From the IMG/VR virus record IMGVR_UViG_2713896907_000005, positions 1-6,883 of that record: a DNA stretch of 6,883 nucleotides; one strand, given 5' to 3'. Shown here piece after piece: positions 4,548 to 6,052 of this stretch. This DNA comes from a virus (taxonomy: Duplodnaviria; Heunggongvirae; Uroviricota; Caudoviricetes). The notes beneath the pieces are model-generated. The model saw only the letters and a list, made by a program, of their open reading frames with translations, was not told the DNA's origin and made no database searches. A program made the position numbers and the translations under genes. The stretch's first letter is position 1, and each line of letters starts with the position of its first letter.

Positions 4548-5126
4548 TTGAGTATACCAACTGTCTCTCTATGGAATGAGATGGGGTTAATCCCCCCAAT
4601 AGACGAGGCTGATCCTACAAGCCATACTCGTTCCCCATACAAAATGGATATAGTACGCTTTGTTAGTACTTTTTCGCTTAGCCCTGCAAGGATTAAAATC
4701 CTTAAGGGTTTTCTTAACTTTCGTGTTTCACTCACTCAAGCAGGGCTAGTTGAAGGTTTTCAGTGGGTAGATGGAAGCTTCACAGAACATATTGAACTTA
4801 TTGAAAAAAGGCCACCGAATGATGTCGATGTTGTGACCTTTTTTCAATTCAGTAATGGCGATAATGATGCAATCGTAATCGGTAGAAAGCCAGAGCTATT
4901 TGATCATGATTTTGTTAAGAAGGAGTTTTTCGTAGATTCCTACTTCCAAGAACTTAATCTACCAAGTCATGAGCTTGTTGAAATGACTGTATATTGGTAC
5001 AGTATGTGGGCACATAGACGCGATCTGTCGTGGAAGGGATTTATCCAAATCCCGTTAAACCCACAACTTGATGTTGTGGCAATGACTATACTTAATTCGG
5101 CTACTACTGAGGGGGTCAAACAATGA
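4548..5126 (+). CDS. Hypothetical protein A, first gene of an uncharacterised two-gene module at the rexA position; weak nucleotidyltransferase-like motif
   Basis: 192-aa ORF. Start assigned to TTG at 4548 with aagg SD (4537-4540); the in-frame ATG at 4581 is an alternative. Stop overlaps the gene B start (ATGA at 5123-5126). AT-rich relative to flanking genes. Contains GS-x14-DVDVV, reminiscent of the GS...DxD nucleotidyltransferase signature; this is weak. Confidence 0.7.
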   Translation: MSIPTVSLWNEMGLIPPIDEADPTSHTRSPYKMDIVRFVSTFSLSPARIKILKGFLNFRVSLTQAGLVEGFQWVDGSFTEHIELIEKRPPNDVDVVTFFQFSNGDNDAIVIGRKPELFDHDFVKKEFFVDSYFQELNLPSHELVEMTVYWYSMWAHRRDLSWKGFIQIPLNPQLDVVAMTILNSATTEGVKQ

Positions 5127-6052
5127 ATCGTAATGATTATGTTTTCGCTCTCAGTGAGCGCGAGCAAATAAGTAATCTATTAAAAAATATGCCAACAAGT
5201 CATTCTATTAGCCGAAAAAGCTTAGAAGACCGTCTGGAGAAAGTTGAGCGATTAATTTCACAAGCTGACGTTCGAGAACATGAACCTACGCATGCTGTGT
5301 TAACTTTTAGAGGCCCAACAGTAGTTGGCACGCATGGCATTTCAGCAGTATTTGGAACAAAAGCTATATCTTGTTTTAATGATGCAATAGCTTACTTGGC
5401 AACCTCTTTCAATGGCCCACTTCCTGCATCAGGCAAGATACCAAACATAGAAAATAATCATCTCATGATTACCGCGTCAGCCCGTGGTTCTTTCGGATTC
5501 GTACTTGAAGAGTTTAGACCTGATGCTCCTCTTGAATTCGATGAAGAAACCCCAGTAGCAAAAGCTATTAATAAGGCCAGAAAAATATTTCAGGCAAGCT
5601 TGGATAATGATGATGAAGAATTGTCTGATGCTATAGAAAACTTAGACTCTCGGGCCTTAGATAAAATCAGAGCATTCATTCATTATCTGCATGAAAATAA
5701 AACAGTTTTTACACTTAAAAGCCAAGGTTTTAGCATCGTTTTTAGAGAGCCAAAACAGCTTGAAGCTGTATATCAACATCTCAGCAATGATAACATTCAG
5801 CAGGAAAAAATTATTGAGAACGTTATATTTTTGGGAACTCTTCCTAACAAGCGCCAATGTGAATTTATAGTTTTAGGTAACACTGATATCAGAACCGCTA
5901 GCATTGACAAAGCTGTAGATGACCCAGATATTATAAACAAGCACTTAGGAAGCGTTGCAACAGCCACGTTCCTGAAAAAAACTGTTGGTAAGGGCAAGCC
6001 CAGATACACTCTGGTTTCTCGACCTCAATGGGATATTAAATCAATCGATTAG
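5123..6052 (+). CDS. Hypothetical protein B, second gene of the uncharacterised two-gene module at the rexB position
   Basis: 309-aa ORF, ATG at 5123 overlapping the gene A stop. AT-rich codon usage. No similarity I can recognise and no obvious transmembrane segment. Followed 15 nt later by an intrinsic terminator. Confidence 0.75.
   Translation: MNRNDYVFALSEREQISNLLKNMPTSHSISRKSLEDRLEKVERLISQADVREHEPTHAVLTFRGPTVVGTHGISAVFGTKAISCFNDAIAYLATSFNGPLPASGKIPNIENNHLMITASARGSFGFVLEEFRPDAPLEFDEETPVAKAINKARKIFQASLDNDDEELSDAIENLDSRALDKIRAFIHYLHENKTVFTLKSQGFSIVFREPKQLEAVYQHLSNDNIQQEKIIENVIFLGTLPNKRQCEFIVLGNTDIRTASIDKAVDDPDIINKHLGSVATATFLKKTVGKGKPRYTLVSRPQWDIKSID

Follow-up and report, generated by a model that had tools for sequence, protein, structure and literature searches.

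A DUF6932 protein and its OB-fold partner in the rexAB slot of a lambdoid prophage: a candidate nucleotidyltransferase-based phage-defence pair

Described two-gene systems and how the locus compares with them

In lambdoid phages, the interval between the repressor gene cI and the antiterminator gene N is a mosaic hotspot that holds abortive-infection genes, such as rexAB and bstA (PMC8585504). The window analysed here, i.e., the whole 6,883-nucleotide stretch of a Caudoviricetes record from IMG/VR (IMGVR_UViG_2713896907_000005), comes from a lambdoid E. coli prophage, of which it represents the region for immunity and replication, and in this interval it carries two genes, A and B, neither of which has a Pfam match to RexA or RexB. 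Their slot is identical to that of RexAB in lambda, extending from the stop codon of cI to the terminator that precedes pL and N, and in both cases there are two genes that are presumably co-transcribed with the repressor. However, there is no relationship in sequence or fold between the two pairs, and no hydrophobic helix is predicted in B, in contrast to the membrane protein RexB.

Other described systems are comparable to the pair in their components. AbiEi-AbiEii and MenA-MenT are two-gene abortive-infection or toxin-antitoxin modules whose enzymatic half is, as predicted for A, a nucleotidyltransferase (NTase) of the pol-beta fold with a GS/DxD/D core; the AbiEii and MenT toxins are NTases that block tRNA. 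The pair differs from them in that A is smaller and does not match AbiEii (PF08843), the NTase gene comes first (i.e., the order is reversed) and B is unrelated to AbiEi. In the MNT-HEPN pairs (type VII toxin-antitoxin systems) the partner is a HEPN protein, which B is not, and both proteins measure about 100-140 aa, versus 192 and 309 aa for A and B, a difference in size that an earlier note on this DNA had rightly pointed out. In CBASS and Hailong, an effector is supplied by the NTase with a ligand, either a nucleotide or an oligonucleotide, whereas A has no SMODS match and B contains neither a membrane domain nor a known effector domain. In general terms, A-B would work like the AbiE/MenT, MNT-HEPN or CBASS classes but is a member of none of them, and B is the partner protein of a putative NTase-based two-component conflict system, with no assigned fold class for its N-terminal two thirds.

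Judging by profile matches, the closest named entity is PDC-M63, a PADLOC candidate of which A-B is a distant relative. The two-gene layout and the occurrence in prophages are common to both, and A matches PDC-M63A, weakly, at 2e-10 (the best value in its family being 1e-16), as do all of the A homologues (56/56). The B branch, in contrast, is divergent from PDC-M63B: B of the window has no match to the PDC-M63B models at E up to 1, and few of 74 B relatives match them, weakly (2e-5 to 1e-3). Therefore, PADLOC would not call this locus, which belongs to a divergent branch whose B component is too distant for the PADLOC models to pick up. PDC-M63 itself is only a predicted system, and it appears in one functional study within the literature, with a negative outcome: the deletion of PDC-M63AB in E. 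coli NILS69, assayed with 10 virulent phages, revealed no defence (bioRxiv 10.1101/2024.12.20.629700).

The cassette between cI and N

The window contains the following features, given with their coordinates and strand:

227-673, minus strand: ninB
1095-1385, minus strand: ren-like ORF
1382-2083, minus strand: P
2080-2979, minus strand: O
3012-3308, minus strand: cII
3447-3647, minus strand: cro
3748-4461, plus strand: cI-type repressor, first gene of the presumed lysogenic operon that continues into A and B (Pfam HTH_3 4e-12, Peptidase_S24 6e-27)
4462-4547, plus strand: spacer of 86 bases between cI and A, left end of the swapped cassette (no terminator-like site; homology ends at 4461-4471)
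4548-5126, plus strand: protein A, DUF6932 (TTG start, 192 aa)
5123-6052, plus strand: protein B (309 aa)
6066-6097, plus strand: intrinsic terminator closing the presumed cI-A-B operon, right end of the swapped cassette (8-bp stem with 6 G-C pairs, T run)
6279-6307, plus strand: pL-like promoter for the N operon, TTGACG-17-GATACT (9/12 matches in a promoter scan; upstream of N)
6497-6769, plus strand: antiterminator N (Pfam N_peptide 2.3e-32, residues 23-114 of the 6425 ORF)

The ends of the cassette are defined by the comparison with other phages. The cI gene is 91% identical in DNA to that of ev243, a phage carrying rexAB, and the homology stops exactly at 4461, the stop codon of cI, to return at 6068, in the terminator hairpin (which in ev243 comes directly after rexB), with 75% identity over 6068-6326. 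A-B therefore replaces rexA-rexB exactly, the swapped interval being 4462-6067 in the window and 7585-8986 in the ev243 locus (L169), and there is no DNA homology between A-B and the rexAB stretch of ev243. The same slot is occupied by a hypothetical protein and a DUF1828 protein in phage ev017, and by a NYN-domain protein in 2B8, and the homology of the window to these three phages ends at 4461-4471. A-B is a self-contained cargo cassette of two genes, and the cI-N slot that it occupies in this lambdoid prophage is a variable one.

As for its expression, a terminator scan of the plus strand listed a strong terminator after B and nothing between cI and A, so that expression in the lysogen, along with the repressor, is the natural reading, and A-B would be co-transcribed with cI in lysogens. 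Among the 74 viral loci of the pair with sufficient upstream sequence, 30 have an S24-type repressor on the same strand at a distance of up to 1.5 kb upstream. In prophages of Proteus mirabilis (L003-L005, 4614-4949), an additional DUF3024 gene lies between the cI-type repressor and A-B.

Of the complete E. coli genomes (5426), eight contain the stretch 4462-6300 at 99.9% identity. Among these is the genome of the meningitis strain CE10, in which the stretch is located inside a prophage and the two products are labelled by RefSeq as "DUF6932 family protein" and "hypothetical protein"; N is annotated there as a CDS of 273 bases. CE10 and the window have 3051-6820 in common (99.1% identity), with different replication genes in CE10 (toprim type, not O/P), and just 3' of N, past the end of the window, the CE10 prophage (L001, 11370-11993) carries a putative nucleotide-modification gene of the Nmad5 family. 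RefSeq also gives in CE10 a 60-aa "hypothetical protein" corresponding to 6337-6519 (plus strand), which covers the pL leader, overlaps the start of N and is without a Pfam match; it is unlikely to be a genuine gene. On the minus strand, a 108-aa ORF (696-1022) that has a hydrophobic helix at its N-terminus and matches nothing in Pfam is placed between ninB and the ren-like gene, within 237-1028, a stretch that is missing from ev017; it may be another small cargo gene.

The obligate pair and its two proteins

A and B form an obligate operon. Their genes overlap by 4 bases (ATGA), B lies directly downstream of A on the same strand in all of the 80 A-anchored viral loci from IMG/VR, and A lies directly upstream of B, again on the same strand, in 74 of the 79 B-anchored genome loci (one genome per species), four of the five exceptions being truncated at the end of a contig. 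In Bremerella, Proteus and Burkholderia, for instance, the DUF6932 gene is followed by that of a protein of ~300 aa which is a B homologue (hhalign E of 1e-52 to 1e-60). The loci cover Proteobacteria, Planctomycetota, Acidobacteriota, Cyanobacteria, Leptospira, Bacteroidota and methanogenic Archaea, and there is no conserved third gene, since any given neighbour is shared by 4 of 74 loci at most. Within the same loci, the divergence of B is the faster one, with a median identity of 26% vs 39% for A. In 50,697 sequenced phage records, neither the cassette nor a B homologue was found by megablast and tblastn. The pair is present on more than 80 viral contigs of IMG/VR, and has so far been seen only in prophages and metagenomic viral contigs.

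The features within the two proteins to which the text refers are:

4755-4844, plus strand: predicted catalytic core of A, residues 70-99, with beta1, G76-S77 (4773-4778), a helix with E83, and beta2 with D92-V-D94 (4821-4829), from conservation and model
4935-4937, plus strand: D130, third acidic residue of A, on beta3 (strand 129-135), from conservation and model
5486-5500, plus strand: G122-S123-F124-G125-F126 of B, turn of a beta-hairpin in the alpha/beta unit, family signature
5663-5692, plus strand: KIRAFIHYLH of B, residues 181-190, within helix 176-191, not a functional motif
5789-6022, plus strand: C-terminal OB-fold barrel of B, residues ~223-300

Protein A is a member of Pfam DUF6932 (PF22014), with 93.6 bits versus a gathering threshold of 27 and a match covering profile positions 3-141 of 142; it carries the same name in RefSeq and also matches phrog_9194. 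The earlier note had placed A at 4548-5126 and B at 5123-6052, and had quoted a stretch of each protein (residues 70-99 of A and 181-190 of B), all of it correctly, proposing an NTase-like GS...DxD motif in the former. That proposal has gained in strength, since the core residues are 95-99% conserved in 131 relatives and lie on the expected strands of a confident model. The pattern is weak by itself, as its loose form (G[GS]-x9-16-[DE]x[DE]) appears in 10.6% of the shuffles of protein A. However, G76, S77, E83, D92, D94 and D130 are invariant in 56 A homologues, and in 131 unique relatives from viral and genomic loci, with identities down to 22%, G76, S77, D92 and D94 are kept at 98-99% and D130 at 95%; in these alignments, the conservation of GS/DxD/D far exceeds chance.

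The AlphaFold model of A, built with 56 sequences (pLDDT 92.5, pTM 0.89), starts the core with helix 46-64 and strand 70-75, directly followed by the G76-S77 turn (the hG[GS] element, here VDG76-S77), helix 82-86 and strand 93-99, at the start of which D92-V-D94 provides the [DE]h[DE]h element. The remainder comprises several helices, strand 129-135 (the third strand, with the third carboxylate D130), helix 140-155 and strand 166-169. In the model, this layout is the core topology of the pol-beta NTase fold, the three carboxylates and the GS turn being canonically placed. Curated NTase profiles (NTP_transf_2, AbiEii and SMODS, among others), which the earlier note had put forward as a check, did not match any of the 56 A members at E up to 10, DUF6932 alone being found. 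A PDB profile search with A returned only spurious matches to PPR repeats, and an hhalign comparison with an AbiEii (from L021) was not significant, with GS aligned to GG and DVD to DLD. No paper mentioning DUF6932 or the RefSeq accessions was found in the literature. On conservation and the predicted model, A is probably a minimal and very divergent nucleotidyltransferase, predicted to be active, and it belongs to no characterised NTase family.

Protein B matches phrog_18731 (3.6e-53) as its sole hit, with nothing in Pfam, NCBIfam or PADLOC; PDB sequence searches with two B profiles retrieved nothing, and a Pfam scan of 74 B relatives gave no recurrent family. When 1.84 billion cluster representatives were searched by profile, 1469 proteins matched at an E of 1e-3 or better, 611 of them at 1e-30 or better, and the best 150 of the 1469 are nearly all full-length (~300 aa). 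B thus represents a large family (at least 1469 clusters at 50% identity, as the library is one of representatives) that spans many bacterial phyla and methanogens and has neither a Pfam entry nor a solved relative. Some B relatives in one of the alignments (A3) have weak matches to the PADLOC PDC-M32A models (4 of 74 to one model, and a single member, with the best value of 1e-6, to a second one), which hints, at the level of profiles, at a wider superfamily of partner proteins.

The AF2 model of B (pLDDT 85.5) is mixed alpha/beta and consists, in this order, of an N-terminal helical hairpin, a small alpha/beta unit, a three-helix unit and a C-terminal five-stranded barrel. As modelled, this closed barrel is an OB-fold, similar to solved OB domains, whose surface is not conserved and is neutral on average (median pI 7.0), so that nucleic-acid binding by B stays putative. 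The N-terminal two thirds have no match among solved structures, and Foldseek against the PDB gave nothing significant for B, its best hits being the release factors RF1/RF2 (E 0.015, TM 0.14-0.16), taken as noise. Across 136 unique B relatives, with a median identity of 26%, GSFGF is 99-100% conserved and constitutes the only strictly invariant block (G122 and S123 are also invariant in alignment A3); the positions conserved at 90% or more are R37, G64, V67, G69, A75, F77, G104, the GSFGF block itself, E129, R177 and P241. These residues are unlike a classical active site, and no catalytic site is recognisable in the sequence of B. The possibility of B being a second NTase was also considered, given the loose G[GS]...[DE]x[DE] matches at G122, and was rejected, as this segment forms the turn of a beta-hairpin and not a strand-GS-helix-strand arrangement.

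The same data bear on the proposal, made in the earlier note, that A and B are an MNT/HEPN toxin-antitoxin pair, for which the NTase-fold gene is indeed upstream and B does contain an R-x6-H string (in KIRAFIHYLH). Nevertheless, Rx4-6H occurs in 78% of the shuffles of B (1.4 such strings being expected per sequence), and among 29 B homologues H190 is a histidine in 2 and H187 in 6, while R183 is an arginine in 26 and is lost in the three most distant ones; since the pattern is so common in shuffles and the histidines are rarely kept, the motif is a chance match. The caution that such motif matching might be coincidental was therefore justified for B and not for A, where conservation goes beyond chance. 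Structurally, A has the expected pol-beta core, but B, with its mixed alpha/beta composition and its C-terminal OB barrel, is not all-alpha and so not a HEPN, and has no HEPN match in Pfam or among structures; both proteins are, moreover, far larger than the canonical ones. Conservation, chance expectation and fold thus rule out HEPN for B, and the MNT/HEPN reading as a whole is extremely improbable, although the looser idea of a two-gene conflict module based on an NTase survives.

A variant of that idea would keep the logic of type VII systems with a non-HEPN toxin: A would nucleotidylylate Ser123 of B, within the invariant GSFGF, thereby holding B, the actual effector, inactive until infection halts this modification and frees it. 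B has no recognisable toxic domain and no membrane segment, few of its conserved residues are polar (R37, S123, E129 and R177), and the known MNTs modify a tyrosine of HEPN and not a serine, all of which makes this variant unlikely. The OB-fold, in turn, raises the possibility of a signalling system, in which A would make a nucleotide or a short oligonucleotide signal (as in CBASS and Hailong) and B would bind it through the barrel and act as the effector. Since A matches neither SMODS nor any CD-NTase profile and has about half the size of a CD-NTase, and since B lacks a known effector domain and its OB residues are unconserved, signalling is a rather improbable explanation.

Possible functions and defence neighbourhoods

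The partner is not a HEPN RNase and the NTase is apparently active, so A-B would probably be a new kind of prophage-borne phage defence rather than an MNT/HEPN pair. Going by sequence comparisons and predicted structures, we lean, with modest confidence, towards A-B being an NTase-based two-gene defence or exclusion module expressed by the lysogen. The main counter-evidence to be set against it comprises the structural scores, which are weak, and the negative result with PDC-M63AB.

A more specific version of this defence reading, with B as sensor and A as effector, is offered tentatively. Complex formation, the roles given to each protein, the substrate and the protective phenotype are all inferred in it: A and B would form a complex in which B, as sensor and regulator, binds phage nucleic acid or protein through its variable OB and helical parts and contacts A through the invariant GSFGF hairpin, A being the conserved enzymatic effector. 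Upon infection, A would add nucleotides to the 3' end of an essential RNA or DNA, as AbiEii and MenT do on tRNA, and this transfer would lead to the growth arrest of the infected cell or stop the superinfecting phage.

In its broadest form, which we regard as plausible if somewhat short of probable, the DUF6932 proteins and their GSFGF/OB partners would make up an unrecognised immune system of Bacteria and Archaea, functionally interchangeable with RexAB, in which a minimal NTase is switched by, or acts on, a partner of a new fold, e.g., by Ser-nucleotidylylation of the GSFGF hairpin or by the B-guided tagging of nucleic-acid 3' ends. Such a mechanism, if true, has not yet been described for any defence system. 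Should A-B be a defence system, it would represent a new partner architecture for nucleotidyltransferase-based immunity and allow a tractable comparison of how different cargoes in one prophage slot protect lysogens. The cassette occupies the position of rexAB, a site among the most thoroughly studied in phage genetics, and is therefore directly testable with the standard tools of E. coli and lambda.

Is the pair devoted to something other than defence? A could nucleotidylylate small molecules or antibiotics, serve in counter-defence or carry out a housekeeping modification of nucleic acids. Yet the obligate B partner is unlike what is found for ANT enzymes, the patchy and mobile spread (8/5426 E. 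coli genomes) is typical of conflict systems, and besides the rexAB slot there are the neighbourhoods of the pair, where defence genes were chosen by eye from 14 loci and do not amount to a statistical enrichment. A type I restriction-modification operon of Methanoculleus nereidis (L017, 1877-10894) has A-B inserted between its hsdM and its hsdS/hsdR genes, and in other genomes the pair adjoins HsdR, AbiEi with AbiEii, a nuclease of the OLD family (ATPase-TOPRIM) or a reverse transcriptase. With these observations, a non-defence role appears improbable.

One locus departs from the usual arrangement. In L020 (3650-5777), the sole B homologue that has intact upstream sequence but no A is encoded 58 bases behind the gene of a restriction endonuclease of the Mrr_cat family (a Mrr-type nuclease). 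This single case may be an alternative effector pairing of B, or the nuclease may be a mere neighbour in a defence island. The faster divergence of B with respect to A, together with this one pairing of B with a nuclease, fits the reading of B as the sensor. Further upstream in the same locus, on the other strand, there is a helicase-like ORF of 1105 aa.
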